A DNA stretch of 63,699 nt, filler included, from Asterionella formosa (GCA_002256025.1; 14 parts of 14 records of this genome joined end to end with filler, not necessarily neighbours in it); one strand, 5' to 3'. Numbered from the whole stretch's first letter, positions 1 to 61,180 are shown. Numbers and translations are program-made. Notes: generated from the letters alone by a model not told the origin.

Positions 1-101
1 AACCCTAACCCTAACCCTAATCCTAATCCTAATCCTAACCCTAACCCTAACCCTAACCCTAACCCTAACCCTAACCCTAACCCTAACCCTAACCCTAACC
101 C
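1..101. repeat. Telomeric repeat (CCCTAA)n / (TTAGGG)n with three CCTAAT variant units
   Basis: About 17 tandem AACCCT hexamers at the contig start, C-rich strand at the 5' end as expected for a chromosome end; three units read AATCCT (19-36). Confidence 0.95.
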
Positions 102-1224
102 AAGGGTTAGCAGGGGTAGGAGCACGAGTAGGAACAGGGGTTGGAGAAGGGGTGGGAGCAGTGGTGAGAACAGGACTTCCTCCTTGAACAGCGGTAGGGG
201 TAAGGGTAGGAACAGGGGATGGATCAGTGGTAGGTGTAGAGGTTTGAGAAGGAGTGGGAACAGGAGTTGGAGTAGGGGTTGGAGCAGTGGTGGGAAAAGG
301 GATTGGAGCTTTCATGGGCCTCACAGAAGGTTTGGTGGGCCACACAGGAGCTTTGGTGGGCCTCACAGGACGTTTGGTTGGCCATACAGGAGCTTTGGTG
401 GGCCTCACAGAAGGTTTCATAGGCCACACTGGAGCTTTGGTGGGCCAAATCGATGGTTTTGTAGGCCACACAGGAGCTTTGGTGGGCCAAATAGGAGCAG
501 TGGTGGGAGCAAGTGTGGGAGTAGTGGTGGGAGTAGAGGTTGGAGCAGGGGTCGGAACAGTTGTGGGAGCAGAAGTAGGAGAAGCGCTGGGAGAAAGATT
601 CCCTCCTCCAACAGGGGAAGGGGTTTGGATCGGAGCAGGAGTGGTGTTAGGAGAAGTAGGCTGAACAGTTGGAGTAGTGGAGGGAGAAGAAGTAGGCTGA
701 ACGGTTGGAGTAGTGGTGGGAGAAGAAGTAGGCTGAACAGTTGGAGAAGAAGTAGGCTCAACAGTTGGATCAGTAGTGGTGGGAACAGGGGTAGGAGAAG
801 TGGTTGGAGCAGTGGTTGGAAAAGGGGTGGGAGTTTTAGTGGGCCAAACAGGAGCTTTGGTTGGCCACACAGGAGCTTTGGTGGGCCACACAGGACGTTT
901 GGTTGGCCATACAGGAGCTTTGGTGGGCCACACAGGAGCTTTGGTAGGCCCTGATGATGTCCATGCTAAAAATCTGGAATTTGTGACATGAAGCATCCTA
1001 AACATGTAATTAAGTCTCTCCTGTTTGTTTTTTTGCACGATGCTGAGATTCTCAATTTCTGCCATATTTCTGCCATCTGTCATCATTTTCTCATGGAAAC
1101 TTTGGGTAATGGGAATGTTCTTGTCATGCTGCTCTGGTTTGGTTTTCTTGAATGCGTGAACTACTGAATTTCTCAATCCCAATAGTGCAGCTATGATTAT
1201 AGTGAGAGATGGAAGGACTTTCAT
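1..1224 (-). CDS. Secreted Pro/Thr-rich (mucin-like) repeat protein, 3'-truncated by the telomere (no stop codon)
   Basis: Hand translation from ATG 1224: MKVLPSLTIIIAALLGLRNSVVHA (signal-peptide-like), then PTKAPVW heptad repeats and PT/PS-rich blocks. The frame is open for 408 codons to base 1 and ends ...PTPANPW-VRVRVR. It is missing from the ORF track because it has no stop. Confidence 0.8.
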   Translation of the reverse strand, partial: MKVLPSLTIIIAALLGLRNSVVHAFKKTKPEQHDKNIPITQSFHEKMMTDGRNMAEIENLSIVQKNKQERLNYMFRMLHVTNSRFLAWTSSGPTKAPVWPTKAPVWPTKRPVWPTKAPVWPTKAPVWPTKTPTPFPTTAPTTSPTPVPTTTDPTVEPTSSPTVQPTSSPTTTPTVQPTSSPSTTPTVQPTSPNTTPAPIQTPSPVGGGNLSPSASPTSAPTTVPTPAPTSTPTTTPTLAPTTAPIWPTKAPVWPTKPSIWPTKAPVWPMKPSVRPTKAPVWPTKRPVRPTKAPVWPTKPSVRPMKAPIPFPTTAPTPTPTPVPTPSQTSTPTTDPSPVPTLTPTAVQGGSPVLTTAPTPSPTPVPTRAPTPANPWVRVRVRVRVRVRVRVRVRVRVRIRIRIRVRVRV

Positions 1225-1499
1225 TGTGAAAAGGGGAGAATTACTGCTATTTTCATTATGAAAAATTAATAACCAGGAAAATAAAGGAAAGTGAGATTCA
1301 TGGCTCCGTAATGATTTCGACAGCATTGGTTTGCTGGTCTTAGATGCATGACATACCTAGATTGTCTGTGAATGTTACTGAAAGTCTTCCTCTCACCGTT
1401 CAGTGAATTTTTATGAGATGTGATGCAATTCAAATTCAAAAGACAACTAAGCATAGATACTTCGATACCATGTTCAATTGCTGTCCTTTTTCGCTTGTA

Positions 1500-2490
1500 C
1501 AGAGTTTCGCTTACTGTACCAGCATGAAAGAGGTCACCTATTCAATTCTTTACCATATGAAATCTACACTATGTTGATAAGCAACTAAGCCTGGACATGT
1601 CACCCCAGAGGGACTGTTGTACTATTATATACACTGTATATGATGTGAAGAGTCGCTTACGCACTGTATCAGCATGAAAAAGGTCACCTTTTCAATTCTT
1701 TACCATATGAAATCTACACTATCATGTTGATAAGCAACTAAGCCTGGACATGTCATCCCAGAAGGACTGTTGTACTATTATATACACTGTATATGATGTG
1801 AAGAGTCGCTTACTGTATCAGCATGAAAAAGGTCACCTATTCAATTCTTTACCAAAGGAACATACTTAGCGAGCCCCTTGGGCACAAGAATCTACACAAT
1901 GTTGATACCGTCTTCACCTCGCATATTTCGCGTGCACAGAGCTTCAGTGCAGCCTGGTATCAAGGTCACCCTTCAAGTGCGAACCTCGCTACTACGTACC
2001 TGATACCATGGTACCAGTACAACATGCTGCAGGCAACTATGTTCGGACATGTCACCCGGGTACCATAAAATGAAAAAGTTCTCATATTTAATTCTTTACC
2101 GAATGAGCCCCTCTGGAACAAGAAAACTACGCCATTTTGATACGGCCTTCTACGTACGTATTTCGCGTTTCATCTTCAGTACACCCTTGTATCAAGGTCA
2201 TCGTTCAAGTGCGAACCTCATTAGCGGTAATTCAGAGGGCACTTGGTACCAGGTGCAACGGTATGCAACCATCTGAAGGCAACTACCGTAAGCTTGGACA
2301 TGTATCATCCCAGAAGCACTGTTGCACTATCATATACACCCCATAGATGTTAATTACTGACATGTTGTGTCATCCCAGAAGCACTGTTGGCTATTATTTA
2401 CAGCGTACTATGAATGTTAAGAGTCACCTACTGCATCAGCACATTCACCTATTCGATTCTTTACCGGTATGAACATACTATGAGAACCCC
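1500..2490. repeat. Subtelomeric tandem repeat array (~150-bp units plus longer diverged units)
   Basis: Unit 'tcgcttactgta.cagcatgaaa.aggtcacct.ttcaattctttacca...gcaactaagcctggacatgtca.cccaga' recurs at ~1505, ~1652 and ~1805, with diverged copies at ~2065 and ~2360-2490. Confidence 0.85.
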
Positions 2491-2683
2491 CTGGAAGGTC
2501 CGGTAGTCAGCGTACATAGCGTGAAGGTTGCTCGTTTTCTGTTCATCGATTCACATACGAGAAAAGGTAGGGTTATAAACCCCAAAAATTGTCGAGCCCC
2601 TAAATTCTGCACCACTCTGTTATTCTTTAAATAGCTGTTTACCTAGATGTTAAGCCATTAGTCATTTTATTGTCGAAATGAAC

Positions 2684-2850
2684 CTCAAGTCAGCAGTCAG
2701 TAAGTTGAAGTTAACAGTCAGCGATTTCATATCATCCGTCACAAAAGAATTGAGTAGTCAGCGATTTTTTCAAATTTTCAGCAAATCAAGTCAGCCATCA
2801 GCGAAAGGAAGTCCGCAGTCAGAAGTCAGCAACTTAAAGTCAGCGTTTTT
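2684..2850 (+). repeat. Cluster of AGTCAG(C) motifs, possibly subterminal repeats of a DNA transposon
   Basis: About eight AGTCAG(C) copies in ~170 bp, all on one strand. Confidence 0.5.
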
Positions 2851-3369
2851 ACGATAGTACCAGTACACTGTAACTTTAATCTGATTTAGCCTACAATTTT
2901 GATAGCTATCTTTTTACTTCTTCTGCCAGTTGGTCCCAAAGCTAGGATTTGTTTAATGTTTGACTGTTTTTCTTGAAGTACCTTTTCTTAAAGTATCAAT
3001 TTCCCTTAATGTGTGATGTCATCGTTTAACCCAATTGCCATTACAGCCACATACCTACGACAATGTAGTTAATAATACAACATACCTGGTAAACATGTGT
3101 GAAGTAAGCAACAATGTATTGCCCATGGAACAAGCAACAATGTATTGCCCATGGAACATACAATATATCATACACCTTTTGATGGATTCATGTACAGGGG
3201 ACCCAAGGTAGGCAGCACTAGAATGTAATTATTTAGCTTAGGCTATGCTTTTTCTCTATTTGAAACACTACAGTGTATTCATTCTGAGTGGCTGGAGAGC
3301 GAATATTTGTTTATCATTTCTCATAACCATACTGCATCACTTGTCATATCAATACCAATCAAAGTTGAT

Positions 3370-5210
3370 ATGGAACACAACAACAACATTCACAATGACA
3401 AAGAGGATAGTCTATTTGGGTTAATACTAGAATTCGTTTTAGCATCGAGGAAGACATTGAAATGACTCATTGAATCGGTTGAGAGTACATGTCTGTTTCC
3501 TTCCAAATCTGATTATTTCGAGAAGGTTTACAAATCTCCAGAAAAAAGAGTTCATATCTTAATTGCATGATTGCCCCAATGACAGGGATGATCGAATTGG
3601 TACTTTTATTGAATCATATGAAGCTGAAAAAGATTCTGTCAACAATTCCATCAAGGAGAATCCCGAGGGCAGTTCCTAAATAGAGGAAAATGCATGTCAA
3701 TTGGGAGAAAGGAATAGCATCATGTGATGCCTACCTTCCAAGCCATACTTATAAGCCACAACAGGTCATTCAGAGTGAGAGTTTCTATCATTCTACAAAA
3801 GCTCCATTGCAAGTTTTATGGCAACTACACATGACTCACTATTATTTCAGCCAGAAAGTGATACTGGATGGACCTGTGGAACTGATTTAAATGAAACAGG
3901 AAAGTCAGGTGTCTCTTCCTCATTTCCAAACGTTCTTATTTCTGATACTTTGCATACGGAAAAAAGGCTTTGCAATTAGATGACCAGGATATATTTTTCC
4001 ATTCTATGAAGAAACATCTCAGTGACTTCAAATACATCAGGGCAAGGTGAAGAAGAAACAGAATTATCAGAAATTATTGGATTGGATAATGATGTTATGC
4101 ATTATCCTGAGTACCAAGATCAAAGTGGGTTCATTCCCAAAGAATCTATAAAAATTCCTAAACCTGTTCAATTTCAAATTCCCAAAAACATTTGCTAAAC
4201 ATGCATCCAATCAAATTAGAACTCATGTTATTCCTGAACGAAAGAGATCTACCACAAATGTACTACGATCATCTTATATAAATTGGCTATTCAAAGCACA
4301 GAGAATGAAAAATTGTCATGGAAAGAATCAAGCTCCTTCCTATCAAACTTTGAAAAGAAAATGGATGATTAATAATTTCCACAAAGGTACTACTTGGAAT
4401 ATTTATGTACATTTTGGAATCATTTTACAATTACTGGACTATCCCTGAAGAATGGACATGTTTTTTTAAAGAAAGAAAATCTCCAGATATTCCAGAGAAC
4501 ATCTCTGATCAGAAACGTAAACAACAGACATTGTTTTTCTTGATCAAGAGCAACCAAAGAAACGGGCAAAGACCAAAAAGGACACATGCACCAGTTACCA
4601 ATTATATATACACTGGCAAAAAACAAGACCTGACACTTGTACCAGAACCAGAAATGTATTTCAAAACTATACTTCGAACAAAGTGCTAGATATATCAATG
4701 GTCATTTGGAAAGGCGATATTCCATGACACTTTATTCATACCACAGAATACATCAACATGTATTGATATTTTAGAGGAAAGGGTTACGAGATTTATGTCA
4801 AATACTAAGATTGTTGTGATTGGCCCCCAACGCGAAATGATATCTCAAATCGGCTTACGAATGGCAAAATTTCATGGAATGAAACATTACCCTCATTTGA
4901 TTAGGAAGTTCGGATCTCCTCTTAGTTTCTTTGGTGGATATTTGGAGTCATTTTTGAAAGACAAATTGAAACGACCCAGTAAGCGTGTCAATGGACAATT
5001 ACATCGATTAAAGCATGACATTTTAACAAGGTCATATGAAACAAGGCAGTTTTCCTTGGCACAAAAAATTGTTTTAGCAAGTGATACAGTGCTTTGGTGC
5101 CAGTATGGAAAGATTTCGATAAACCAATTTCTTCAGGTGTTTGGGATTCTTGTGGAAGATATCCTGTATTGGTGCATAACAATTCCAATTGTTTTGTGCA
5201 TCCAGTGATG
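3370..5210 (+). mobile_element. Decayed Plavaka/CMC(EnSpm)-like transposase relic
   Basis: Broken ORFs. Fragment 4795-5208 has KFHGMKHYPHLIRKFGSPLSFFGGYLESFLKDKLKRPSKRVN, matching the KFH..H...I..FG.P...E...K.P..R.N C-terminal motif of Plavaka-type transposases. A homologous stretch lies at ~52380-52530. Confidence 0.55.
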
Positions 5211-13664: not shown

Positions 13665-15788
13665 ACTAAAGGTATCTATAGAAGGAAAGGAGGCAATCAA
13701 ACAAACGCAATGGCTAATAGAATTGAAATAAATCGACAACAGATAGGTAGTATTCTTGGCTGGAAAGGTACGGTGCACTTCCTGTGAGTGGATTCTTCGC
13801 TACATGAGCTGCGCGATGTTTCTACGTCGAGGAGGAGTTTTATAGAACCACAGACTATTACTTACTTGAATAGAGGGAAATTTTCGAACATTGCCTCAAT
13901 CTATATCTCTGTATAAAATCATTTCGTTTGCCAAATATTTTATCACTTGGAATAGCCAATGCACGCCTGCATTAGCATACGCCGGCTGGGAGTTCCGGCA
14001 AAAAAAATAAGTCAGAACCTTTTCATCATATGGAGCTTCGGCTGCATTCAAGGTCAGAGTACAGTATAGTCCACGTGCGAGCTGGTAAATAGCTATTTAG
14101 CTGAGATACCGTACTGCGATTTGTTCATACATTAAAAACGAGAGAGTAGCATGTCATCAGCCTCTGTCTTGACCACGACAAAAATAGTGATTATCTCCAC
14201 AAGGATTGAGAGCAACACTTTCTTATTTCGCACATCTATCAAGCAATACATAGACAGCACAATCATAAAAGAATTAGACTACGTATTCTATTGGCATAAA
14301 TATTGACAATGACGATTGAAGTTGGCTGCTGATGGCGTATTTTTCGTGTAATTTAGAAATGCACAATTTTTTACTGCTGGTACTGGTAGCAGTTGACTGT
14401 CTGCCATACTATATCCATAGGTTCAAGTTCCAGCCTCTTCATGAAGCCTCACCAGTATCCAGCTCCCACTGCACCCTTCTTACTGTTCCTGTAGTGAACA
14501 GTGTGTATCTGTTAGGGTTATTGTTATTAGTAGTTTAGCATGTTGCCTTTCATCTGAGATTTTGTGGTTTGATTCCCGCAATTTTTTGAGAAGCAATTGT
14601 TGGGTTCAACTCCCACACTCCTTACCATCCTGTGCAGCCTTGCCTGCTGGTGTGCAAGAAATAGTGGGTTGCCCCCCTCCCTACAAGCAGCTTGTGCCAC
14701 CTTTCTAGGCAGTCAGAGTTTTCCCAATGCTGTGGCTAAGATGATCAACTTTTGTGAAAGGCGGTTGGGGACTCATCTACTACGCCAAATAAAACTAGGG
14801 AAGCACAGGTCTTCTCAACAGATAGCACAATGAATACTTGCCTATAGAAATAGGGGAGTACAAATTTGCTATAAAACTTACTAACTTTTTTAAACAGTGT
14901 GTGTCTGCTTCCATTCCAGTTAGGAGTCATATGCTGTTGGAGTGTCTGAGATGATGACAAGTAGAAGTCCAGTTTCGACAACAGATCAGCATATGCATTT
15001 TCGCTAAATAAGCTGGGCGAAAAATTTGTTTTTAGTTAGTTTAAGTGTACTTTAAAATTCAATTGTGGAAAAAATGGGATAGGGAGATCCTTGTTTTACA
15101 ATGACTGCTGCTGAGTTTGAAGCCTTCAAGTTTTAACTTTTATTGCTGCTGATGCTTGGATGTCAGATTTCAGTTTGGAAGCAGCTATGATTTGGTAAGT
15201 TCTCCTTCCTCAACTCTGCTTTTGTTATTCATTTTCTTGTTGCATCTAACAGCTCGGTTTTGGTTGGTTACATTATTTGTTACTAATTTAATTCATTGCT
15301 GGTAGTCTCTTAAAAATGCCATCATGGTGCTATGCATGTTTGGGACAATTACTTGCTCCTGGTGTAGCAAAATTGAGTTGTCTCAAGGGCAGCACTATTT
15401 TTGTTTGTGCTCCCCCCCCTCATGACAGTTAAGCCGGAGCTCATAGAGGTGCATTTGCTTGGTATCCTCAAAAAGCGATTTATGTTCCTGCAGGTGTTCA
15501 ACCACCTTCACCTTGAGGATCATATCAACAATGCTTTTTTGCCTCATTGCAATCTACAGGATGTTAAGTCCTCTCTTGATCCAGATGGTGCTTCAAGTCT
15601 ACCTTCCAGCACCTCTTGAAAATCATCTTTCTACCCTCCCCCTTTTCAGTTTACCATGTTGCCAGTTCCATAACTTTCTTGGTGGTGCCAGATGTTATGA
15701 ACAACATCTTCTCCCTCTAGATAAGTGAGAGTCAAGCACAAATGTTAATATTGACAATCAATGTGGAATGCTACATTACTTAACATCA

Positions 15789-22841: not shown

Positions 22842-22941
22842 NNNNNNNNNNNNNNNNNNNNNNNNNNNNNNNNNNNNNNNNNNNNTTAATTAATTAANNN
22901 NNNNNNNNNNNNNNNNNNNNNNNNNNNNNNNNNNNNNNNNN
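22842..22941. other. Artificial contig linker N44-TTAATTAATTAA-N44 (first of 13)
   Basis: The same 100-nt linker starts at 45765, 47261, 48757, 50253, 51748, 53243, 54738, 56232, 57726, 59220, 60714 and 62207. It carries stops in all six frames. Confidence 0.97.
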
Positions 22942-30656: not shown

Positions 30657-30829
30657 CTTGCTTCGTTTATGTAGTCCCTTGGGTTCCAGCTGGTGAGCCA
30701 GACAACAAGCAGGTCTAAGGCTCTCTGGAGAGGAGGGGGGGGGGGGGGGATTTTTTTATTTTTTTTTAACTTTTATTTATTTAATAAANNNNNNNNNNCG
30801 CCCCCCCCGCCCCCCCCCCCCCCCCCCCG

Positions 30830-30869
<40 letters not shown>

Positions 30870-45460: not shown

Positions 45461-45989
45461 CCATGATATCATTGATTGGAAGAGTTTTATGTATATAAAT
45501 TATATTCATGTCACTTATACTGTTATACTATAATTACTTAAATTTGATTAGCCAAGAAGTCAAAGATTGACATACCAACAACATGTAGAATCTACGCAAT
45601 GTCAGACTCAGAGTAAACCACCTAAACCTTGCCTGCTTTTGCTCTATTCGGGCTTGCAATAGGCAACGTTCGTCTTTCTTTGATCTCATTGTCTGCTGCT
45701 TGTTATGCCAGTTGAAGTGGATCGGTGAGTACAACAGTGAAATACTGAATGTGGATTGTAGATTNNNNNNNNNNNNNNNNNNNNNNNNNNNNNNNNNNNN
45801 NNNNNNNNTTAATTAATTAANNNNNNNNNNNNNNNNNNNNNNNNNNNNNNNNNNNNNNNNNNNNTTCATGAACCTTTTCTCAAAACGACCGCCCTAGGTA
45901 TACAATGTACAAAATACGTACTGTGGAACCTGACTCTAAAACCTTTCTTCACCATCATCTCTCTTACCACCTCATACATACGAACGACA

Positions 45990-46570
45990 CACTACCTGGT
46001 AGACTACTGGTACCAGGTACCAGGTACCTGGTACTGGTATCATACATACCGGGACATGGCCCTTCGACACTCGACGCGAACAAGAAGCATATTTACCGGT
46101 ATTTGTCTACAGTGCATGCATACCAAGCAAGTTGCGGTCATTTTGCTTACCAGGTACCGGTAAACAAACAATTTCATCTGGGATAAAACTACATAGCTAC
46201 CGGTATGATAAATCTTTAGTTTCAGCAAAATTACCGCAACTTGCACAGGTACCAGGTACCTAGTACCGGTACCATCCAGTAGACTTAAGGGTACACTACG
46301 TACCTAGTACCTCGAACCTGGTACCTGGTACCAGTACTCCTACCCTCACTCTACCGGTATGTACATACAATTTACCAGGTACATGGTAGACTACTGGTAC
46401 CAGGTACCAGGTACCAGGTACCGTTATTAACTAAGATAGTCTACCGGTACCAGGTACCAGATACCAGGTACTACCGGTAACGGTGCTCAAATGTGCCTAC
46501 CGGTACGTACCGGTATGTACATGCATAATACATACCGGTACCTGGTCCTGGTACCAGGTACCAGGTACCT
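45990..46570. repeat. Dense TA-CCWGG-TA / TA-CCGG-TA array
   Basis: Dozens of TACCAGGTA, TACCTGGTA and TACCGGTA units. Similar clusters occur at ~21200, 22215, 23100, 28470, 41400, 50770-51260, 55100 and 56940-57390. Confidence 0.9.
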
Positions 46571-46844
46571 GATACTTACTACAGGTATACTGATACATTT
46601 TTGACGAAATTCTACCAAAGTAGTATTTTTCTGTAGGGCTCCGGTAGTGTTCTACTCTGGACAGGTCAATACTGTCCGGTTTTCCTCCCTTGCTTGACCG
46701 TGGTGAAAATATGGTATAGAGAAAGGCAAAAATTCTACCCAGTAGTACTGGGGGTAGAATTTTTCTTCACATTTTGGTACATAGAATATTCTACCAACGG
46801 ACCAATGGAACCCTGCAGTATGCCATGCTATTGTCCAAGAAAAT

Positions 46845-46870
46845 GTCTGTGTCTGTGTGTCTTGCTGTCT

Positions 46871-46904
<34 letters not shown>

Positions 46905-46922
46905 TGTGTGTGTTGTGTCTGT
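46845..46922. repeat. (TG)n microsatellite
   Basis: Interrupted TG run. Confidence 0.9.
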
Positions 46923-47620
46923 CAATTCCACGTGGTCAGCCAAATTGACAATTGCTTCCAACTAACAAGAAAACTAACTGCAAATATTTGATTCCTTGTC
47001 GCTCTGATGGCCAAGCTGCATCTGTGTTGAACGCAAATTCTAAGGACAAGAGGGATGCGCCAAGCTAGGTTCTCATTGATTGCATCCCTGTCAAAAGGCA
47101 GTTGTTTTCTTGTTTCCTTGGCCATTATCCTGAGACAGAGTGTATGGACCAATGCACTAACCCAAGAAACAGTGGGTTTTCTGCTAAGAACTGACAATCC
47201 AGCAAATGCTAAAGAAAGACTTAGACAATTCTGCAAGATGATGTGTATGCAGGAAAATCANNNNNNNNNNNNNNNNNNNNNNNNNNNNNNNNNNNNNNNN
47301 NNNNTTAATTAATTAANNNNNNNNNNNNNNNNNNNNNNNNNNNNNNNNNNNNNNNNNNNNGCCTATTTGTGACTTCCTGCGCAACACAACAAAACTTGCC
47401 ACAACGACGAATCAAACGGGTTTCGAATATGAGGAGTGGTTGGAACGAAGAGACTTGTCATAAACATGACACTTCTGTCCGACTCGGTCGATGGAGCAAA
47501 AGAAACGACACCAGCGTCCGGTTATTTGCAAATGGCTGTACTTGATTAAAAACAAATAACCATTTTGTTAGTAACTATTAATGAGTAAATAAAAATTCTT
47601 ACTTCCATCTTTCCCCATAG

Positions 47621-47822
47621 GAATCAAGCAAAAACGAAAGTAGTCCTGACAAGGAATACTGTGTCGTCGATCCGTCTCACAGTAGCCGAAAAGGAGCGTA
47701 TCTTTCTGGACGCGCTTCAGTCCTACGATGCCGCTGGAAGGCAAATGCTCAAGGATGACGAGTTTGACCTATTGAAGGAAGATTTGCAATGGAAGAACGG
47801 ATCTGAGCATATAAATAGCTAA
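47621..47822 (+). pseudogene. PGRL1: PGRL1 (PGR5-like 1) gene fragment, frameshifted and truncated
   Basis: After the acceptor ...ccccatag: DKEYCVVDP, a frameshift, then IRLTVAEKERIFLDALQSYDAAGRQMLKDDEFDLLKEDLQW, matching the PGRL1 E..FL.ALQS.Y..G...M...EFD.LKE.L.W repeat. It ends at the repeat boundary. Confidence 0.72.
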
Positions 47823-48756
47823 AACAAGGAAAGACGACACAACAATGAACGTGATGGCTGGTTGTTGAGGATACCCGTATGTGATATGCATCAATCCATC
47901 ATGTCACAAATCATATTATAGTGATGCACATATCAACGCATCCGTATACTTAGATCCTATCCACTGTATAATACTATCATATTAAGTGTTGACTTTAAGT
48001 GTATACATTAAACGACAAACACATATAATAATTAACATACTTTATGATTGCTTGATTTATTTTTTATGATGTCTTGGTAACACTTGCGTACATATTTTAT
48101 CGTATTTTATTGTCATGGTACTATTTTTACATAATCATATTTTGATCAAAATTATATCATAAACATTTGATAAAATCATCATAATTTTATGATCAATTTA
48201 TCATAGCTATGTGATGTACTTTATTCAATATTACGTGTCATACTTTGGTGATGTATGCATCGATGTAACCCTATCATGATATCACAGTATCATCTTATCA
48301 ATCATGATGAGATGATTGGGAAGCAAATGTATTCTGCGATGTGCTACAGGGTATATTATTATATCACGCAATTTAGTAGCGAAGTCACTCCGCCTGTAAT
48401 GTACTAAAGTCGACAGTGCACATACCGGTACTCAGACGCTAATCAGGTTTGAGGCAACGGACAGCGGTTCCAACGAGCGAATGATGATACCACGGGTACC
48501 AATTTTTCCAACGAAAGAACTTGTCTCTCTATTGATGAGGATGACACGGACACGGACACCGACATTTTCAGGAGCAAACAACAATGAAGAGACCCACTTC
48601 GTCTGCGTCGCTCTATTGATGGTAACAAAGATGCGGACAAGTTCAACAGTGAATACAAGAACAACATACCATTGAAAACCAGTCGACAGTGTCTGCACGC
48701 ACACGCCAAGCAAGTTTGAGGCAACGGACAATTTCAACAAGCAAATGACGATACAG
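47808..48756 (+). repeat. Dispersed repeat family copy 2
   Basis: Colinear with 6744-7670. Confidence 0.85.
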
Positions 48757-50352
48757 NNNNNNNNNNNNNNNNNNNNNNNNNNNNNNNNNNNNNNNNNNNN
48801 TTAATTAATTAANNNNNNNNNNNNNNNNNNNNNNNNNNNNNNNNNNNNNNNNNNNNACATGAAACCGTTAAAAGTAATCTTTTTTACGTGAAGAGTGGCA
48901 TTAATGCATGTGAAGTACCACATAATTAACACTCATACGTAGACGAAATTTCGAAAAGTGGCGTATTTCGCGGCTTAGATGTATGATCAAAGGTATAGGA
49001 TAAACGAATCAAAATTTATTGATTAAAGATCATAGTTTATACCGGAGAAGTTGCTCATGCATGCAACCCTAACCTCTCCCCCTGTATACAGTACAGAAGC
49101 GATAACCCCCAGGCTACCAAATTTTTATGTCTTGTAAGAATTATCGCAGCATGCATGCATACATGACTCCTACTGGTATATACAATTCGGAAATGATGAC
49201 CACCAGACTACCAATCCTATAGGTCCTGTAGAATTATCGCAACATGGCTGCATATCTAATGAATGGGCGGGAGGAGTCATCCATGCTACACCTGTATAGT
49301 ATGAAATATTGAAATGATCAAATATAGCTAGTCTACACAAGGAGCAGTGCATCATCTATGCCCTGTTATTTTAATTCCTATGAAATCTCTTGATCTGTTC
49401 TGCGCTTTTTCGCCACAATTGTTTTCATTGGCTGTTTCACTGGAGAGCATTCAAATTGAATGTGCTTCGAACGAAGCAATGATCAAAGTCCACTCCATTG
49501 CATAATGGTGAGTCTCACAACGAAGTATCAGTTAGTTGATTAAAATTGGACTGTCTTTTGTGCACCCTCATTGTGTTTGTACTTGACTTGGCAACTGTCA
49601 GCCAGAAGCAGCCATCATGGTATGCCACCATTTATTGTCTATACAAGTTTCGAATGTGTTCAGCTATGATAACTTTTGCTCCCCCCTCCTAAACGCTATC
49701 TCACCACCCTTGTCGTATTGAACATGATTTTGGGAGCAACCAAGGTATGTCATGCAATGTAATAAGTAATGTCAAATGAGAACATAAAATATTGTTTTGG
49801 GTTAGAAATAAAGTAAAAATAAGAATTTCAGTGGAAACATATGCATCAGACTATGTGTAGATAGATACAACAGAACCAAAACAACAGTGCCGAGCAATCA
49901 ACAATGACAGAAGTGATCAAAACAGATCATGGAAGCAACCAAATCGGAAATTCGAGAAATAGTATTGCTAAACCACTATGTCAGGTAATCCATTCCCTCG
50001 ACTATCAGAAACAGTGACGCTTTACCTCTACCTGGTACCATGTACTGGCACCGGTACATGGCACCGATACATGCACATGCAGAACAGGGTGCCATGCTGC
50101 ATGCTAGATACCACGCACAGCAAACGTGAAAACCGATCATAGGTATGATAGCCGAGCAAAAATCATACCAGCAGATTACGGTAGTACCAGGTACCATGCA
50201 CCGCCACAGTAAACCACATCATCACTCCATCAATGGAAAAATTGAAACTTGGNNNNNNNNNNNNNNNNNNNNNNNNNNNNNNNNNNNNNNNNNNNNTTAA
50301 TTAATTAANNNNNNNNNNNNNNNNNNNNNNNNNNNNNNNNNNNNNNNNNNNN

Positions 50353-50640
50353 TGAAACTCGGTGAAAATTTCTTGTTTCGCAAATCTTGCACGTGTACTG
50401 AAGTTCAAATTTTTCAGACACGACATTCGCAACAGGTTGAGCCGTCGCAATAGATGGAATACTGCTTCCGAAGCTAGAGTATCCGATGGGTGGAAGTTGC
50501 GGAATCCCTAGAACTTCTGAGTCGTCCTCCAACGACTCCTTCAACAAAGTCACCCTTGTCTTGACGCAGTATGGGACGACAAAGGCACTTACACCATTGC
50601 CGATCATCAAGCTTAGAACGAACAGAAATGAGTGATTCAT
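50353..50640 (-). CDS. DNL-type zinc-finger chaperone (Hep/Zim17-like), plastid-targeted, 3'-partial
   Basis: Signal peptide ending VSA-FVVP; KFELQYTCKICETRNFHRVS is the start of zf-DNL; cut by the contig end. Confidence 0.8.
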
Positions 50641-51959
50641 ATTTTACCAAGCTAGGAGAAGAAACCCAGCAATGCCAATGGTCGCAGTGCTGAAAGTCGT
50701 CAATGATATCTAGCAATCCAATGCACCGAGAATAATACGTTGCATGCAGAACAGAACAATTGTGAGATCATCGTACCAGGTACCATGACGTGATCATTAT
50801 TTGTCCAAAGTCGTTCTCCATGAGCCTCCCAATTTCGACACCACGAAGCAAAGAACACGTAAAACAGCGCCACAAGCCAAAGAAAAATAATCCATACCGG
50901 TACATAAAAATCAACGGGTACCCTACCTGGTACCAGCACCTACTGGTACCATGTACAGAGAGACATACGTACCCAGCTGTGCTTATTTGGCTGGTGGTCA
51001 GGAGGTATATACCAGTACATACGAGAAGTGCCAGTAGACTTCCAGGTACTCCAACCAGAGGAAGGTCAATCAATCGAGACATTTAGCTTTATCTTTTCGT
51101 AAGTAAAAAAGGTGTTCTACAGTACCGGACCTGGTACCAGGTACCAGGTACCTGGTAACGTATTCGAGTTGAAGCGTACAAGAACGGCGCCGTACCTGGT
51201 ACCTGGTACCATGTGTATACCGGTACCAGGTACCTTACTACCGGTATCTGCCGGTATACTGTAACATACGATGACAAGAAATGACTATATGTTCAAGCAT
51301 GTCCGTCGATGTATAAACAGTATGTAGACATAAATACTAACTAACTAGGCCAACTGCATTCATGGCAGTACAAACCGTCTTCTACAGCGCCTTCCGCACT
51401 GTGGTATGATGTGTTTGTCCTCCTCTCGTCCTTCACAATGCATGTCAAGGGAAATACAGTGTGTACCTGGTACACACACATTCTGCATACATACTGTACT
51501 ACGAAAAAAGGCTGCAACCATCCTCGGTTTCATGTACTAAAACGGAAAGGGTGCGTTTTCTTGTTTTGTTTCTAGTAGTACGGCGGTTGTGGTCTAAAAG
51601 AAAAAGTCGTTACCGGGGTTTCATCATCGTGTTCTGTCTCGTGAGTTCCTTTTGCTGCCTGATGGACTAACATCAGTTGATGCGCTGAACCTTGATAACG
51701 CTGGACGAGCCGCACACGCAAGGATATGAGGGAGTTTTATAACTATCNNNNNNNNNNNNNNNNNNNNNNNNNNNNNNNNNNNNNNNNNNNNTTAATTAAT
51801 TAANNNNNNNNNNNNNNNNNNNNNNNNNNNNNNNNNNNNNNNNNNNNAATTCATTCTGATACTGATAACATCGTTGGGTACAAGGTTTACATACACATAA
51901 GGTGATCTGTGTAAAGTCATAACCTTTGCTAAAACAATAATTGATCAAAGAGCAACAGC

Positions 51960-52335
51960 TATTGATCAATCAAAAAACATATCAATATATCAAAACATTT
52001 GGTTAGCAGATTAGTTTTGATAACTAATATATATGACTTCTATCTATGCTTAACCTGACAGGTGTAAGAAAATAAGATGACAAAAAAATTTGATTGACCA
52101 CACCAACACGGTCATTGATATATCAAAATTATCATCAACATAACAAAACATTTGATCAATATATCAACAATTTGGATTAACCGATTAGATTTGGTAACTA
52201 ATTTATACGAGTTCTTATACACGCATAACGTAACGTGTGTATGCTACTAACCTAACGTACAAATTTGATTGATAATACAGACACGGCTTGTGATATATCA
52301 AAATTATCATCAACATGTCAAAATATTTTAATAAA
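51960..52335. repeat. AT-rich ~175-bp tandem duplication
   Basis: 'aaatttgattga...acacgg...tgatatatcaaaattatcatcaacat' occurs at ~52085 and ~52261. Confidence 0.7.
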
Positions 52336-52379
52336 CAATCAGTTTTTTAACGTATGCTGAGTAAAACATTAGATCTAAT

Positions 52380-53202
52380 GGAAAATCTTTTCACAGACGA
52401 ATATATCATGTTGGAGAAGATGTGTATGACCATTGAATCGTTTACTTGGCCGTTTCCATTTCTCTTTCAAGAATGATTCCAGAAAACCACCAAAGAAATT
52501 GATGGGTGTTCCAAAGCATTTTTAAATTGAATCATATTTGATAAGAATATAATCACCGACTCAAAACATCATGCTTTCGGAGCATCTCCCTGCAAGAACT
52601 TAACTAAGATTCCTTTAAATTGATTATTTAATACATTCTGAAATTCTCTCGCTCAACTTTTTTATGCACATGCCACCAAATGTTGATTTGATGTAATCTA
52701 AACATGCCTTGTTGGTACGTTCAATGGTCTGATTAATTGGAAGTAGTGCATCAGAACCATTCCATATGAAATCGGCAAGCTCTGGGTCACTCTCCACTTC
52801 TTTGCCTAACTCCGGTTTCACTGTGTATAGCCGAGTTAGTCAACATTGGGCAAACCAATCCTGTTTGTGATTGGAAATGCCTTTCATACTACTTGGACCA
52901 GATAGGCAGGGCGGGATGTTTGATTCTCTTTTGGGACCAGAAAAAAGCACATTAGATTGATATTCTGTTTTACAGTACCTGCAATTCACAAATTATAACA
53001 TCAAACTTACATGTTCACAGCAAAACTTCTTGGTCTTGAAAATAAAACTCACAACCTTTTTGACAATTGATGGTTCAATTTCAATTTTAGCTAATCGAGA
53101 ACGACGTTCTGATATGGCTGCTGAAATTGAAGAGTCTTGATAACCTTGTATGGACAAGCGAGTTTTGAACCGAATTACGAGCTTTGTAGTGATTGAGTTC
53201 AT
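52380..53202 (-). mobile_element. Second Plavaka/CMC-like transposase relic
   Basis: FGTPINFFGGFLESFLKEKWKRPSKRFNGHTHLLQHDIF is homologous to ~4910-5025; multiple stops. Confidence 0.55.
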
Positions 53203-53342
53203 TGATCAATTGATAATATCCTTTGGCAAGTGCAAAATGTTTNNNNNNNNNNNNNNNNNNNNNNNNNNNNNNNNNNNNNNNNNNNNTTAATTAATTAANN
53301 NNNNNNNNNNNNNNNNNNNNNNNNNNNNNNNNNNNNNNNNNN

Positions 53343-53858
53343 CCTTTCCTTCTATTTCTATATTGTACTTGCTCGACTTATTGCTGTAGACTATTTGTAG
53401 CTGCTCCGAAACGGAGAAGGCCATTGCGGCACATCTCAATTTTGACTCACTACGGCGACATGCAAGGTTAAAATATGCAACAGCTGTTTCTGAACGAAAT
53501 AACGGATTCAATTCCTTATTGTCAGCTACTCAGCATCCTTTCCTTCTTTTTCTATATTGTACTTGCTAGAGTTATCGCTGTAGACTATTTGTAGCTGCTC
53601 CGAAACGGAGAAGGCCATTGCGGCACATCTCAATTTTGACTCACTACGGCGACATCCAAGGTTGAAATATGCAACAGCTGTTTCTTAACGAAATAACGGA
53701 TTCAATTCCTTATTGTGAGCTACTCAGCATCCTTTCCTTCTTTTTCTATATTGTTCTTGCTCGACTTATTGCTGCAGACTATTTGTAGCTGCTCCGAAAC
53801 GGAGAAGGCCATTGCGGCGCATCTCAATTTTGACTCACTAGCTACGGCGACATGCAAT
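53343..53858. repeat. 194-bp tandem repeat (~2.7 copies)
   Basis: The TA of the landmark 'gactcacTA' falls at 53451, 53645 and 53839. Confidence 0.92.
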
Positions 53859-54274
53859 GCTAAACGATGCTCAACGAGGACCAACAGTGCTTTATTTCCA
53901 ATCTGGCAGGCTATTGTAATCTCTACAATCAACAATGACTTAATTATGTGTCTACAACATCAACTACTACTACTACGTGTGCTGAATTCTACAGTGTGAA
54001 TCTTCATCTTGCATGTGTTATTCTTTGCCAGTTCAGATCAAAGTGATATGTCGGAGCGGAAAAAATAATAAGTGTATCGGAATTGGCGACTCTTTCGTTC
54101 ATTATATGGTGAAAGCAGCATAATATTGCGGCAGAGCAGCATAATTTCGCTTTTAAACTGTTGCGATGGCTAGTTGGTCAACATATATTGTCACGAACAC
54201 ACATAATTATTGGTGTGATCACATAATTATTCGATAAGTGAAATAAATTTTTGTTTAACCCGAATAAATTAGGG

Positions 54275-54351
54275 AAAAAGTAGCATAATATTTCAAAAAA
54301 GTAACATAATATTTTAGAAAAGTAACATAATATTTTAAAAAAGTAGCATAA
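54275..54351. repeat. 21-bp minisatellite (aaaagta[g/a]cataatattt...) x ~4
   Basis: Direct inspection. Confidence 0.8.
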
Positions 54352-54404
54352 ATACGTCACTTTACACATAAATTCGAAAAAGTGCCGTAAACGGCGTCTT
54401 AGAT

Positions 54405-54737
54405 GCCTTTTCTTCTCCAAGAATTTCATCATGGCTTTCGTCATCACTAGTGTGTTGATCTTCATAATCTTCATCTTGTGCATCTTCAAATGCTTCATTA
54501 TCATAATCCACTCCTGAAATCCAAGCACTATCATAAAAAAGTTGTCCTGTTCGATTTGATATCTTGAGACCATCTGGCATATTTTCCTGCCCAGCAAGGG
54601 TGTGTACTTGATTCACGATTGCTGGGGTAAGTGGTAGAGGAGTAACTGTTCGTCTCGTGATCAATGAATTTGTAGGTAGGTTTAATAATTCATGACCTCC
54701 TTGCACGTTGTCATTGTAGCGTAGATAAATGCAATCT
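54405..54737 (-). mobile_element. Ty1/Copia (CoDi-like) pol fragment, post-integrase region
   Basis: DCIYLRYNDNVQGGHELLNL.T...ITRR.VT.LP.T..IV..VH.LA....MP.GLKI.NRTG...YDSAWISGVD. Confidence 0.7.
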
Positions 54738-57700
54738 NNNNNNNNNNNNNNNNNNNNNNNNNNNNNNNNNNNNNNNNNNNNTTAATTAATTAANNNNNNN
54801 NNNNNNNNNNNNNNNNNNNNNNNNNNNNNNNNNNNNNTCTGGAAGGAAAAGCATATGTTTGTAGCCAGCCCGTAACCGTTGAATTGTCGTGATACTTTTT
54901 GATGATACAATTTTATTTTTATTTTTGTGGAGAATGGATTTTTTCGGTTTAAATCGAGTAGCCGATGCATGATACTTTTTCAAAAAATATGATACCAAAT
55001 CGAAAATGATAAGAACGACCCTTAGGAACCAGCGTCACCAAGCAAAAAGGCAAGGACTTGGCTGTGGTACATACGTGGTCTCTCACGATAGGGCCCCTGT
55101 TGTACCTGGTACCTGGTACCAGGTACCATACCATACCATGTACCTACCGGTAGGATACAGGACTTCGATCCAAATTATGGCTTGGTCCCCCCCCCCAAGT
55201 CCATCAGGTACACACCGGCCCATTGTACCAGTAGCTGGGTCTACATTTGTAAAATTAAGCACAACCCAATATTTGTTTTGAATACATAAAAGTAGAGTCG
55301 TCCTAGTTGATGTCGTTCATTTCCTCTTCATTAAATATATGAATGAACATAGTACCACTTGTTAATAATAAACCATCATGAATCTCTTGACAAATTCATG
55401 CCACATACACTGAGGAGCCACAGCCTCACACTTGATTGCTACACTCACCATGATGATAGCTCTGTTTGTCATTGTTTGATCTTCACCATCAACTCCTTGC
55501 TATAACTATGATCGACCAGCAAAGCCATCCTCATTGAGTCTCAGATGTTCTTGGTGACAGGTAGTACCATTCGTTCCATGTTCCATGAGCTTGTTAGAAA
55601 CTTGCAAATGATTTTCAGTGATGAAGGGGGAACGAATAGAAAGAAACACGACAAGTGGTAACAATACTAACAAGCAAGGCACTGAAGGTAATCCTTGCCC
55701 GTCAGCATAAATCCAATGCCCATGTCTGAACATGAAGAGGCGATTTGTCAGAATTGCCAAAAGCTTGCTGTGGTGAATTCTGTCTGCAAGTTTCAACCAA
55801 AAAATAAGGAAAGGAGAAAGATATCTACAGGTTTCAACGAAAAGTACAAGAAGGATTTGATCCATTTCGAAGAAATTTAAAATGATGCAATTGATAAGAG
55901 AGTCTTGGAATTGAGAGGATTGATTTTCGTAGTGACAAGAGAATGCCTTGCATCAATCAAGGATACAAGATTGATGTTATGGGGAATGTGCTGGGTCCTC
56001 CTTTATTGTTTGTTGAAACAGGAACATGTACCCAAGCAAATTCATTTCTGAAATTGAGTGGGCTCAACATATTTGATGTACCACTAAAATTTCTGTTTGT
56101 AATCATCTTTGGAGGAAGGAAAACAGAAAGGCAATTAAATCTTGAATGCATTGCATTTTGTTCTCAACTAATGGCCATACATACTTTGAAATAATTGTTG
56201 TGAAGTACACAAAGCAAGCAAGGTGGACCAANNNNNNNNNNNNNNNNNNNNNNNNNNNNNNNNNNNNNNNNNNNNTTAATTAATTAANNNNNNNNNNNNN
56301 NNNNNNNNNNNNNNNNNNNNNNNNNNNNNNNAGCACGACACTGACTTGTAAACCATGATGGTACTTCATTTTGATTTGGTTGTTGTTGGTCAATTGGCGA
56401 GAGGAAAATATACCAATGTGATGGATTATTGTTGGTTTTTCGTTTATTTGTGGCGTTTACAGTCAAAAAATATTTTAAAGTTCGGCAACGGGACCGGTCG
56501 TGAGAAGCCGACATGTTATTTCAAGGCATGACCCAGGTTAAATAGTGTGCTACCGGCAAACCCAGCCAAGGCATTCGCTCACAAGAATGGTCGACTCCGA
56601 GTGTTCAAACGTTGATAAGAACTGCAGAAGACAAAACCGGTATGTTGTGATAGAAAGCTGGTGGATAGGTACAAACTAAGCATGTTTCTTTTTTCCTAAA
56701 TGGACTGAATAGGCAGGAGGCCGTCGATTTATTTCACCCAATGATATTAGACGAAAAGTGAACTTAACTCCTCAAGCAAGCTTGCCGTATTTACGTTATG
56801 TTTTGTGGTGCCCAAAAAAGGGAACCACCTGATGATGTCGCTCACTGAGGGGGGACAGCCAGCATCTGCGGCATGTTTCATGTCCCATGTCTTGAGTATG
56901 TACAGCTGATGTCTACCAGGGATTAAAGACCAGCACCGACCTGGTACCAGGTAGCACTGCTGAACTACCGTATGTAAAGTACCAGGTACCCTGGTACCTA
57001 CAAAAGAAAAGGGACGGATGGTGGTACGTACCATGTTGTCGTTCATTTTTGCGACCTTTGAACAGGAGGTATATTTTAGGCGACTCGTCCATGCATTCTT
57101 TGGAGTGAATAATTTCCGCGGGAATGGAAACATGCATTGGTTTCAAGTTGCAGAGTACGTACCCAGCTCAGGACTACCTGGAACCAGGTACCTGGTACCA
57201 GGTAACCTTGGTACCAGATACCAGGTACCTGGTACCTGGTACCGATACATTGACAAGGGTGTTTCTTTTTTCCCGCATGAACGTCGTCATTTATGATGAT
57301 CTGAAAAGGACTACCTACCGGTAGTCTACCTGGTACCAACTCACTCGAATTGCCGGTACACGCATGTGGTCTTTTTTTCTATACCAGGTACAACTTCGTG
57401 ATCAATCGTCCTCTCGGTCTTGCACAATTACGACATAATGCCGTGATGATAACTAGCCCCGGTACTCTAGTGTACTGGGGTTTCGTACCTTCACAGTTTG
57501 CCTACCGATAATCATTTCAAATCAGGGGTTTATTTGATTTGGTTTTACATCCTGCCTTACCGCACATTAGGGCGAGATGCATTTTATCTTGATTGTAATG
57601 CATTGAAACTGTAGCCGAATATGCACATAGGCCATGACGATTCGCTCGTGTTCGCTGTCTAAAGCAGGGTCCCAGGTATCGTCCTGCAATTGCACCCGGT

Positions 57701-57825
57701 GTGTCCCCTGCGCGAGCTCGGAGTCNNNNNNNNNNNNNNNNNNNNNNNNNNNNNNNNNNNNNNNNNNNNTTAATTAATTAANNNNNNNNNNNNNNNNNNN
57801 NNNNNNNNNNNNNNNNNNNNNNNNN

Positions 57826-59219
57826 TTATATGAATGAGATGTGTATCGATAAAGAAGCATTTCACTTTGTTCAGTCATACAGCTTAAAGAAAGGCCTCAA
57901 GAAATTTGGCCAGAAAGGAAGAGACGCTGCTTATAAGGAAATGAAACAACTACATGATAGAGTTGTGTTTGAACCGATTAGGATTGAAGACCTAACCGAT
58001 ATTGGAAAACGACGTGCAATGGAAAGTCTAATTTTTTTGGTTGAAAAGAGAGACAAGAGCATTAAAGGCAGAGCATGTGCCAATGGCAGTTCGCAACGTG
58101 AATACATGGAAAGAGATGAAGCAGCTAGTCCAACTACCATGACTGAATCTGTTATGATAACAGCAACAATTGATGCGAAGCAAAATCGCGATGTTATGAC
58201 TGCAGATATACCCAATGCATTTGTGCAAGTGGATATCGATGAGAAAGAAAAAGGGGAGCGAATCATTATGAAGATTAGAGGTTTGCTTGTCAATATGTTG
58301 ACAGAACTCAGCCCCGAGACTTATGAAAAATATGTTGTTTATGAAGGGAACAACAAGGTCCTATATGTTAGGATGATCAAGGCATTATATGGCATGTTAC
58401 AGTCATCATTATTATATTACAAGAAATTTCGGAAGGATATTGAGTCAATTGGATTCAAGGTAAACCCATATGATCCATGTGTTGCAAATCGCATTGTTAA
58501 TGGCAAACAGCACACAGTTACTTGGCACGTAGACGATTTGAAATCAAGTCACGTGGACAGGAAAGTGAATGATCAATTTTTGGAATGGCTCAAACAGAAA
58601 TACGCTTCTGACGAAATTGGTGAAGTCAAGGTCATGCGTGGAAAGAAGCATGATTATTTGACTATGACGCTAGATTACTCTATTCCAGGAGTGTTAAGGG
58701 TGGACATGACCAAATATGTCAAATCAATGATTGATGATTTTCCAGTGAAACTTGAAGGTGTTGGAAAATTTCCTTGGACAGATAAATTGTTCACAGTTGA
58801 TACAAAATCAAAGAAGCTTGAATATGAAAAAGCAAAAATATTTCATACTTTTGTTATGAAAGGAATGTTCCTATGTAAGCGAGGAAGACAGGACATTCAA
58901 CCAGGAATTGCATTTCTGGCAACCCGAACTATCGAACCGAATGAAGGCGATTGGGCAAAATTAGTCAAGATCATGAATTTCTTGAAAGCAACTCAGAACG
59001 AGGTTGCATCTATGAGTGCTGATGACACTCAGAGCATTAAATGGTACGTTGATGCGGCGTTTGCAGTGCACAAAGATTTTAAAAGTCACACTGGAGCTAC
59101 AATGTCACTTGGAAACGGAATTATTTGTTCTATGTCCACGAAACAGAAAGTGAACACTAGAAGTTCGACTGAAGCAGAATTGGTTGGTGTCGATGACATC
59201 ATATCAAAGGTGTTGTGGA
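57826..59219 (+). mobile_element. Ty1/Copia (CoDi-like) reverse transcriptase-RNase H, open frame, partial
   Basis: Motifs KGRACANG, ADIPNAF, KALYG, NPYDPCV, WHVDD, WYVDAAFAVH.DFKSHTG and RSSTEAELVGVDD. Confidence 0.93.
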
Positions 59220-59578
59220 NNNNNNNNNNNNNNNNNNNNNNNNNNNNNNNNNNNNNNNNNNNNTTAATTAATTAANNNNNNNNNNNNNNNNNNNNNNNNN
59301 NNNNNNNNNNNNNNNNNNNGGGCTCATTCAACCGGATTTGATTTTCAAAGTGTCAGCACTCCTTGTTTGGATGGCTATCTGAATTGTCGACAAAGTGCCA
59401 TTCTTTGCTATTTTCTCGGGAGCATAGGGGCAAGTATCAACAAGTGCATTGCCAATATAGTTAATAATTGTATTAAATTCTGCTTGTAGCCTGCCTGCAC
59501 ATTCCCTCTGCCTCTGTGTTCTGGAATTCACTTTGTCTTGTTCTCCAATTGTTTGGTAGCATTGTGGTTCAGTTGCAT

Positions 59579-60713
59579 CTAATTTACTATATTCAGTTTC
59601 GTTGTAGATTCCTGGCAAAAGATATTTCGAATTGGCACTGGTGGTGGTTCCTCCTCAGTATCATCCACAAGCCAATGAGAAGAATTGCGCAACGAGTTGG
59701 AGATGCGGTAGCGAATACCATGTTGATTCTTCACCAACTCTTCCCCGATTGCCGAAATGCTCAGTCGCTGACGATTGCTACTTTCTTTCCTTGCTTGTTC
59801 CTTAAGCTGATATTTGAATGCTGATTCTTTCATTGGTGTTTCTAATTGCGATTCCAAAACCTTATGGTTAGGTTTTCTGAAAACGTTCGTCCTTGAAGCA
59901 TCGATAGTGAAAGTAGGTCTTTTTGTAGCAATGGATGATCTATGATGTTTCTGTTCTAGCTCCCCAATTTGAAGGGGCTCCTCCTTCCTAGATCTCATCT
60001 TTATTGATTCTCTCCTTGGACTTTTCCCTTGTTGTCGCTCCAAACGATGTTCCACCAAATTTTCGTCATAAAACAAGATTGCTGGTGGTGACTCCAAAGT
60101 GTGTTTCTGATCCCTGCTAGCAAACGTCGCTTTGTGTCGTGCTGCTGGATGCATGTCATCAAAAGTAATCCTCGCTTTCTCACCTGTTGACAGAGGATGA
60201 TAATGTCGTGGTGGTGGATGGTGATGGTAGTGGTCCTGCATGCTGACTACTCCATGAAGAGGTATTTTTTGTCCCCTTCGTTGCTGTTGTTTCTGTCCCA
60301 ATTTTTCCTTTTTTCTGTATAATGACTTTGAACGAGTCTCATCCGTATTACTTGCCTTATTGACAGTAGTCGCTGTTGTTGTAGCAACAACAACCGTTTC
60401 GTGTCGTTTCTCCTTTGGGGTATTTTCCAGTGTCTGTCGTCGTCGAGTACTCTTGTGTTTACGATGACGGCAAGGATTACGCTGTACGTTTGCTCCTTGT
60501 TCTTCTCCTGTAGCAGCGTTATCTGTATTACCATCAGCATAATCAGTTGTTTCATTATGAATGACTTCTCGACACTGTTGAACCACCAAAAGCCGTCGAG
60601 CCAAGATGGATGGTTCACTTTCCTGTTTCAATAGACGGAATCGTTCATCCGTCACTGCAAAGAGACGCCGAGCACTACTTTGTGATTGAAATGCAAAGAA
60701 AGATTCCTCGCTC
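59579..60713 (-). CDS. Hypothetical low-complexity basic protein, 5'-partial
   Basis: Frame open for more than 358 codons up to the contig end; no recognisable domain. Confidence 0.5.
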
Positions 60714-60988
60714 NNNNNNNNNNNNNNNNNNNNNNNNNNNNNNNNNNNNNNNNNNNNTTAATTAATTAANNNNNNNNNNNNNNNNNNNNNNNNNNNNNNN
60801 NNNNNNNNNNNNNTGTGCAGTCCAAAAAGGTCCAAAACGACCATAATAGTGCATATTTTGTATAATAATTTTAATTTATTAATTCCGAAAAATGCCTTCA
60901 AAACTAATGCGCACCTCTCCCTCCGTCCATCATATACCGGCAGACTACCGGTACCCTGGTGAAGTATCTAACTAGAAGTAGTAGTATT

Positions 60989-61154: not shown

Positions 61155-61180
61155 CTCTCCCACACTTGAGGGAAAACCTT

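Follow-up and report, generated by a model that had tools for sequence, protein, structure and literature searches.

A chromosome end of Asterionella formosa probably healed by telomere addition at the 3' end of an orphan gene

Introduction

In the assembly of the freshwater alga Asterionella formosa (GCA_002256025.1), a coding frame without a stop codon runs directly into telomere repeats. How does a gene come to end in a telomere? A first-pass annotation, made from the sequence alone, had proposed that a chromosome break inside a surface-protein gene was healed when a telomere was added de novo. Here we analyze the locus within a window of 63,699 nucleotides, filler included, which is the whole stretch of DNA considered in this work. 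We describe the junction and the gene that it interrupts, compare both with longer copies of the locus from other samples, and weigh a healed truncation against the other explanations.

Results

A telomere tract adjoins an open reading frame without a spacer

The window opens with telomere repeats (Table 1). CCCTAA occupies its first bases on the plus strand, and the G-strand of the repeats runs 5' to 3' toward the physical end. Tandem Repeats Finder reported an AACCCT array at positions 1 to 101, with a period of 6, 16.8 copies, and 97% matches. The 12-mer TTAGGGTTAGGG, which corresponds to two TTAGGG units, matched the window 14 times with at most one mismatch; 13 of these matches lie inside positions 3 to 98 and one at 10459, and the expectation from shuffles was 0.15. 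The assembled telomere is only about 100 nt long. Three consecutive TTAGGA variant units, at about positions 19 to 36, lie distal to 11 perfect units, and in a newly made telomere they would reflect either misincorporation by telomerase or a low-coverage error at the assembly end. Interstitial telomere-like stretches of 10 nt were also seen far from the end, at 14511-14520 (GTTAGGGTTA) and 49065-49074 (AACCCTAACC).

Table 1. Features at the telomeric end of the window
Feature	Position	Strand	Description or basis
Terminal telomere tract	1..100	-	TTAGGG on minus, CCCTAA on plus; orientation of a left chromosome end
Junction base	101		Common to the telomere phase and the wild gene; microhomology of 1 nt, G on the sense strand
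Coding region, orphan and probably secreted Pro/Thr-rich repeat protein	101..1224	-	374 native codons and a 375th spanning the junction; stop-less
Native telomere-like octamer AGGGTTAG, inverted	103..110	+	2 nt from the addition site
Second 21-nt/42-nt repeat block, PTKAPVW-type heptads	305..507	-	9.7 copies; tandem repeat search and translation
First 21-nt repeat block, PTKAPVW-type heptads	830..950	-	5.8 copies; tandem repeat search and translation
Predicted signal peptide, residues 1-24	1153..1224	-	Cleavage after VHA; inspection of the translation
Probable 5' UTR	1225..1245	-	Lake RNA contig ends at 1245; X1 DNA contig goes on (1119-1531)

Read from the ATG at 1224 on the minus strand, the frame extends to base 1 over 408 codons with no stop, counting the assembled 100 nt of telomere, and upstream the same frame is open as far as 1356. 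Coding sequence reaches base 101 and the telomere begins at base 100; unique sequence thus abuts the repeats directly. The first-pass annotation had described the non-stop frame, the absence of a spacer, and a GTT-AGG reading of the repeats that yields Val-Arg, with Ile-Arg from variant units, and all three descriptions held when the frame was counted and translated. The tail reads W, (VR)11, (IR)3, (VR)2, V, and its VR/IR part makes up the last 33 residues. The annotation had also stressed that the frame avoids TAG. The open frame is real, but two of the three TTAGGG frames (TTA-GGG and GTT-AGG) contain no stop and only TAG-GGT is closed; an open frame through the telomere is therefore unremarkable, a 2-in-3 chance outcome. 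As to the TERRA-like polarity suggested for a transcript of the locus, the orientation is correct, since a sense transcript would carry UUAGGG.

The open reading frame is a gene for an orphan protein

Contigs of four sequencing runs were aligned to positions 102 to 3500. The runs that match the stretch bear labels such as 'algae metagenome' and freshwater or lake metagenome, which indicate a freshwater microalga. Run X1 is the best DNA match and is probably the source culture. X3 is DNA from a lake, and X10 is RNA from the same lake sample. The fourth run, X21, holds poly(A) RNA of the sample that also yielded X1, and none of its contigs fell on 102-3407; as a small, contig-only run, it has no bearing on the expression of the telomere-fused copy.

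Two observations show the ORF to be a real gene: shuffled versions almost never remain open as it does, and RNA contigs cover it. Over the 374 native codons the sense frame contains no stops, and the other five frames contain 5 to 36. When shuffled, the 282-codon repeat part remained open in 0 of 2,000 cases, and the nonrepetitive N-terminal part of 91 codons in 2 of 2,000. The in-phase antisense frame is open as well, from 1 to 954. Contigs of the lake metatranscriptome X10 span 102-1245, and one of them stops at 1245, 21 nt upstream of the ATG. This contig end, from a single RNA study, is a weak hint at the transcript start. It agrees with a start at the ATG at 1224 but not at the upstream ATG at 1326. 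Over 1356-2039, the X10 contigs gave no RNA depth.

By eye, the N-terminal sequence MKVLPSLTIIIAALLGLRNSVVHA resembles a signal peptide. It is followed by about 68 unique residues, the first heptad block, a Pro/Thr-rich stretch, the second heptad block, and a last Pro/Thr-rich stretch (window 103-304); residues 92-374 include 83 prolines and 70 threonines among 283 positions. No membrane anchor was seen in the protein. The product is an orphan protein, probably secreted or associated with the cell wall; it may lie at the cell surface and may be a mucin-like or extensin-like glycoprotein. Past base 509, one X10 contig whose alignment begins at 375 carries 16 further letters, which match both about 686-701 and 722-737. 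This points either to a lake variant of the gene with another repeat number or to a jump from one repeat to another in the de Bruijn graph.

Searches for relatives were negative throughout. The protein has no Pfam family; a match to FlgA_N (E 0.085) was below threshold and was rejected. For the N-terminal 100 amino acids, 37 candidates among proteins of 224-714 aa included no significant homolog, and no match was found among 1.84 billion representative proteins. The sense C-terminal residues 275-374, compared with proteins of 30-204 aa, gave 2,632 candidates and none that was significant, and an ESM Atlas search with the 374-aa protein returned no usable match. A second copy of the gene was not found within the 63.7-kb window. 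The 26-mer at window 110-135 had no exact match among JGI metagenome contigs. A protein-based scan of the same resource gave 263 pattern matches, a single one of which passed tblastn (L001, 50% identity, residues 155-202); we treated it as a low-complexity resemblance in the Pro/Thr-rich part and not as a relative.

Repeat-rich DNA separates the gene from the rest of the window

Between the gene and the first recognizable gene, at 10.6 kb, the DNA is AT-rich and repeat-rich and holds no recognizable ORFs; none of the seven ORFs of 106-172 aa in the subtelomeric stretch from 4.4 to 10.3 kb contained a Pfam family. A 153-nt tandem repeat (2.3 copies, 91% matches) occupies 1507-1854 at single-copy depth in X1, with related motifs to about 2400. 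From 2496 to 3500 and beyond, the summed depth rises to 16,700-170,000 in X1 (versus about 930-1,250) and to as much as 1,448 in X3 (versus about 18). This region is a high-copy dispersed or subtelomeric repeat that starts about 1.3 kb behind the gene. The genes farther into the window are ordinary eukaryotic genes with long exons, encoding SelO, Myb, Yju2, an alpha-galactosidase with a ricin domain, and an amino acid transporter. An Atlas search with the Yju2 protein yielded only clusters dominated by animals.

A run of 69 C (30789-30869, 94% matches) directly follows 10 N and is probably an assembly gap with a homopolymer artifact. The N in the window total 1,154; they include pairs of 44-N blocks 12 nt apart, found at 22842-22941 and at 45765-62306, where they recur every ~1,495 nt from 45765 on. 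These paired blocks look like masking and not like biology. At 57782-63606 lie retrotransposon remnants, some of the copia type (RVT_2) and some of the gypsy type (integrase zinc-finger).

Longer wild copies of the gene continue past the junction

Two lake contigs, one of DNA (X3 record 18) and one of RNA (X10 record 9), extend beyond the point at which the window turns into telomere. Each is 483 nt long, aligns to 102-393, and has 191 letters beyond base 102, where the window holds just 101 bases. Their single difference from the window is A>G at 167, and the lake form is thus about 99.7% identical to the window over 292 nt. A further copy was found through the in-phase antisense frame, as an 82-aa protein (P0002) encoded on a 1,869-nt contig of an ENA metagenome. 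Residues 44-81 of P0002 are identical at 37 of 38 positions to the antisense frame of the window from 103 onward, and the sole mismatch (E to G) corresponds to the same A>G at 167. Its residues 1-43 (MALITRKGFHRNTELLIIICTIIIVADNILCVVTRSTACPLLT) are non-telomeric, where the window reads NPNPNP, and nothing similar to them occurs at any other place in the window (best E 0.41).

The 191-nt extension of the lake contigs should not be perfect telomere, since a contig built with k=31 cannot cross 191 nt of a 6-nt repeat. Taken together, the antisense translation of P0002 and this behavior of de Bruijn contigs argue that the lake extension is non-telomeric. The wild form therefore runs past the junction with other sequence for at least 129-191 nt. 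The extension is also present in the RNA contig, and the RNA contigs seen are of the wild form, with G at 167 and the 191-nt extension. Going by P0002, the wild copy could read CCTT|GTAAG at the junction, which would be a splice donor; we judged this unlikely, since the RNA contig crosses the site and its two ends coincide with those of the DNA contig.

In X1, G at 167 accounts for 0 of a depth of 2,007.7; this run carries the window base only. Its summed depth is 1,624-2,292 over 102-329, against about 930-1,250 in the flanks, and the contig over the second heptad block (375-666) has a depth of 582.6, roughly half the 925-1,253 of the single-copy contigs beside it. These differences across the gene could reflect two haplotypes with different repeat numbers. 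In X3, cover on 786-1583 is absent, a contig hole that carries no evidential weight.

The junction at base resolution

The CCA at 100-102 in the window corresponds to residue 43 of P0002, a Thr (ACN), and the alignments of the X3 and X10 contigs begin at 102. It follows that the two forms share 101-102 and differ from 100 outward. The native sense sequence reads ...GCT AAC CCT TG; the next base is T in the wild copy (codon TGT, Cys), whereas the window reads on as G GTT AGG GTT AGG. The first bases added after the native ...CCCTTG are GGTTAGGG, and judged from the phase of the repeats, the match to the telomerase template at this site would be 1 nt (base 101). By analogy with healed ends in other organisms, the junction matches those made by telomerase.

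Close to this site lies the native octamer AGGGTTAG, which is telomere-like and inverted with respect to the new telomere. The wild copy has it too, as the residues RVS in P0002. Together with the new telomere it forms an inverted repeat of 7+7 nt (95-101 and 104-110). A fold-back (palindromic) artifact at the junction was ruled out, as the complementarity breaks off after 7 nt in either direction. Telomere-like octamers outside the tract occur at 11 start positions, in 7 sites, in 63.6 kb, and AGGGTTAG is the only one in the gene. In codon-shuffled versions of the gene, 0.36 such octamers were expected per 846 nt, and at least one was present in 1,089 of 5,000 shuffles. The chance of an octamer within 10 nt of a given site is about 1.2%, and directly beside it about 0.13%, both figures coming from a post hoc test. 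Because of its inverted orientation, AGGGTTAG cannot prime telomerase; that it serves as a binding site for proteins that recognize duplex TTAGGG is speculation.

How much of the gene was lost can be estimated from the wild extension. With the codons of P0002 reversed to the sense strand, the protein after ...PANP would continue with C/G/R/S, then twice with K/E/Q or a stop, then with G/R/W, and sense stops are possible at codons +2, +3, +8, +14, +28, +29, and +41. The Pro/Thr-rich coding pattern stops exactly at the junction. The residues of the P0002 extension (8 Ile, 5 Leu, and 5 Thr among them) suggest DNA richer in AT than 103-360, which has 56% G+C, within the wide bound of 23-63% G+C that the peptide alone allows. 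On balance, this pattern leans toward a natural stop within a few codons of the junction. With the stop that near, the loss would comprise the stop codon, the 3' UTR, and distal DNA, and almost no protein; otherwise, a short and different C-terminal part would have been lost. The deletion would measure at least 129-191 nt, and it may exceed 1.6 kb if the 1,869-nt ENA contig is mostly distal.

A healed truncation weighed against other origins

That near-identical wild copies continue with non-telomeric sequence supports a terminal deletion followed by telomere addition. We put the probability of a real healed truncation, in which a chromosome tip was lost and a telomere was added de novo at the end of the gene, at about 0.65. 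A junction of this kind could also stem from an artifact of assembly or reads, or from a rare subclonal healing event with most cells keeping the longer wild end. The contig mapping covered 102-3500, so the junction itself is known from the assembly; the tract is short, its three identical variant units are distal, and coverage may be low at the assembly end. The depth in X1, about twice that of the flanks over 102-329 and about half over 375-666, allows for more than one form. Against this, the repeat strand has the correct orientation for a chromosome end and the join falls at a G followed by the same bases as in telomerase-made junctions, a combination not expected of a random chimera, and X1 carries only the window base at 167. 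We consider an artifact or a subclonal event unlikely.

Improbable, in our view, is an origin of the window copy as a partial duplicate, truncated or placed at the chromosome end, with the lake contigs and P0002 derived from an intact paralog and no function lost. Duplicated genes are common in subtelomeres, and the X1 depth at 167 exceeds the ~1,000-1,250 of neighboring single-copy contigs. However, depths of these Logan contigs are sums over contigs on repetitive sequence and not copy numbers, the 63.7-kb window holds no second copy, and the paralog would have to be identical to the window at 167, where X1 lacks G. The end would in any case remain a healed truncation. Scarcely credible is an ORF that is no gene and lies open by chance, within low-complexity repeats of the subtelomere beside the telomere. 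Such a frame would fit the antisense frame open over 1 to 954 and the failure to find a Pfam family or homologs; it does not fit the rarity of open shuffles, the nonrepetitive N-terminal 91 codons with their signal-peptide-like start, or the RNA contigs that begin just upstream of the ATG.

The healed truncation also revises the earlier account of the break. The longer wild form supports healing by a telomere; the site, placed by the first-pass annotation inside a surface-protein gene, lies at the last codons, and the term surface goes beyond the secreted or wall-associated protein that the translation suggests.

A proposed history of the chromosome end

In a healed truncation, the break would have occurred distal to the gene in the sequenced strain, with loss of the tip of the chromosome arm. 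Resection would then have reached a 3' end at ...CCCTTG, whose G could pair with the telomerase template, and repeats would have been added. With all distal DNA, the gene would have lost its stop codon, 3' UTR, and poly(A) signal, at a cost to the protein of probably one or a few codons. The line with the shortened arm would have survived, and the lost DNA would have been dispensable in culture or retained on the homologue.

The copy left behind would be a non-stop gene without a poly(A) signal, its promoter about 1.2 kb from the telomere. If transcribed, it would yield a UUAGGG-tailed, TERRA-like RNA on which ribosomes would read Val-Arg to the RNA end. Non-stop decay and ribosome quality control degrade stop-less mRNAs and their nascent chains, and they would be expected to destroy this RNA and its product. 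More probably, then, the healed copy is predicted to be weakly expressed or silent, a fresh pseudogene. It is a long shot that the healed copy is transcribed into the message of an ATG-led protein, with a signal peptide and a poly(Val-Arg) tail that tracks telomere length, and that the inverted AGGGTTAG recruits capping factors and marks a preferred healing site.

Discussion

The locus offers a freshwater algal case of a chromosome end that would differ between a sequenced, cultured strain and wild populations through terminal loss and re-capping. It bears on how well genomes from culture collections represent natural ones. The wild gene appears in lake RNA contigs, and the strain may thus lack, or have only in impaired form, a gene that natural populations use. 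For annotation, it means that a stop-less gene model at the end of a contig is not necessarily an assembly truncation. Should the healed copy be expressed, the way cells handle non-stop messages and VR peptides encoded by telomeres could be followed in a simple natural setting. If the VR-tailed product proved true, telomere repeats would be translated canonically, and the gene would by itself report on telomere length, on transcription, and on non-stop decay.

Telomere healing inside genes is already known, and its mechanism is not new; particular to this locus are the position at the end of the coding sequence, the inverted octamer, and the ATG-led VR frame. Human 16p terminal truncations with healed ends are an established case. 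Healing hotspots are described for yeast. Usual non-stop mRNA substrates arise from premature polyadenylation or from mutation of the stop codon. The present gene resembles them in that its coding frame is stop-less to the end of the template, and differs in its putative cause, the loss of a chromosome end. Among the matches listed in a literature search on healing and non-stop decay, no paper treated a healed gene-telomere fusion as a non-stop message.

The closest parallels for the junction come from Plasmodium falciparum. In strain 3D7, 5 of the 28 ends are healed, and at 4 of these the repeats lie within truncated var genes; further cases appear in culture, and each of the 9 new healing events that were mapped starts with GGGTT, where the end shortly matches the template (PMC5550746). 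In the addition proposed here, too, the repeat is entered at its GGG portion, next to a short template match. The addition differs from that account in occurring in a freshwater alga with TTAGGG repeats and at the extreme 3' end of a coding region, where it may leave the protein almost whole (PMC5550746). An octamer lies beside the site here, whereas the same study reports no upstream motif (PMC5550746). Healing is seen in cultured lines in Plasmodium as well, and the junction here is known from the assembled sequence.

Chlamydomonas reinhardtii offers the nearest algal comparison. Two mutation-accumulation lines lost 94 and 163 kb and had their ends healed by telomere addition; as there, a cultured alga would here have lost a chromosome terminus that telomerase re-capped (PMC9977147). 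For Chlamydomonas subtelomeres, a further study proposes healing primed by telomere-like seeds, which share the phase and the orientation of the telomere, whereas the octamer here is inverted (PMC8287924).

The predicted tail has its counterpart in mammals, where TERRA (UUAGGG) gives rise to a valine-arginine dipeptide repeat protein through non-ATG translation (PMC9992779). A transcript of the present locus would likewise contain UUAGGG in the frame that gives poly(VR). In the mammalian system, translation of VR is repeat-associated and proceeds without an ATG, whereas in A. formosa ribosomes are predicted to enter the repeats from an ATG, behind a signal peptide (PMC9992779).
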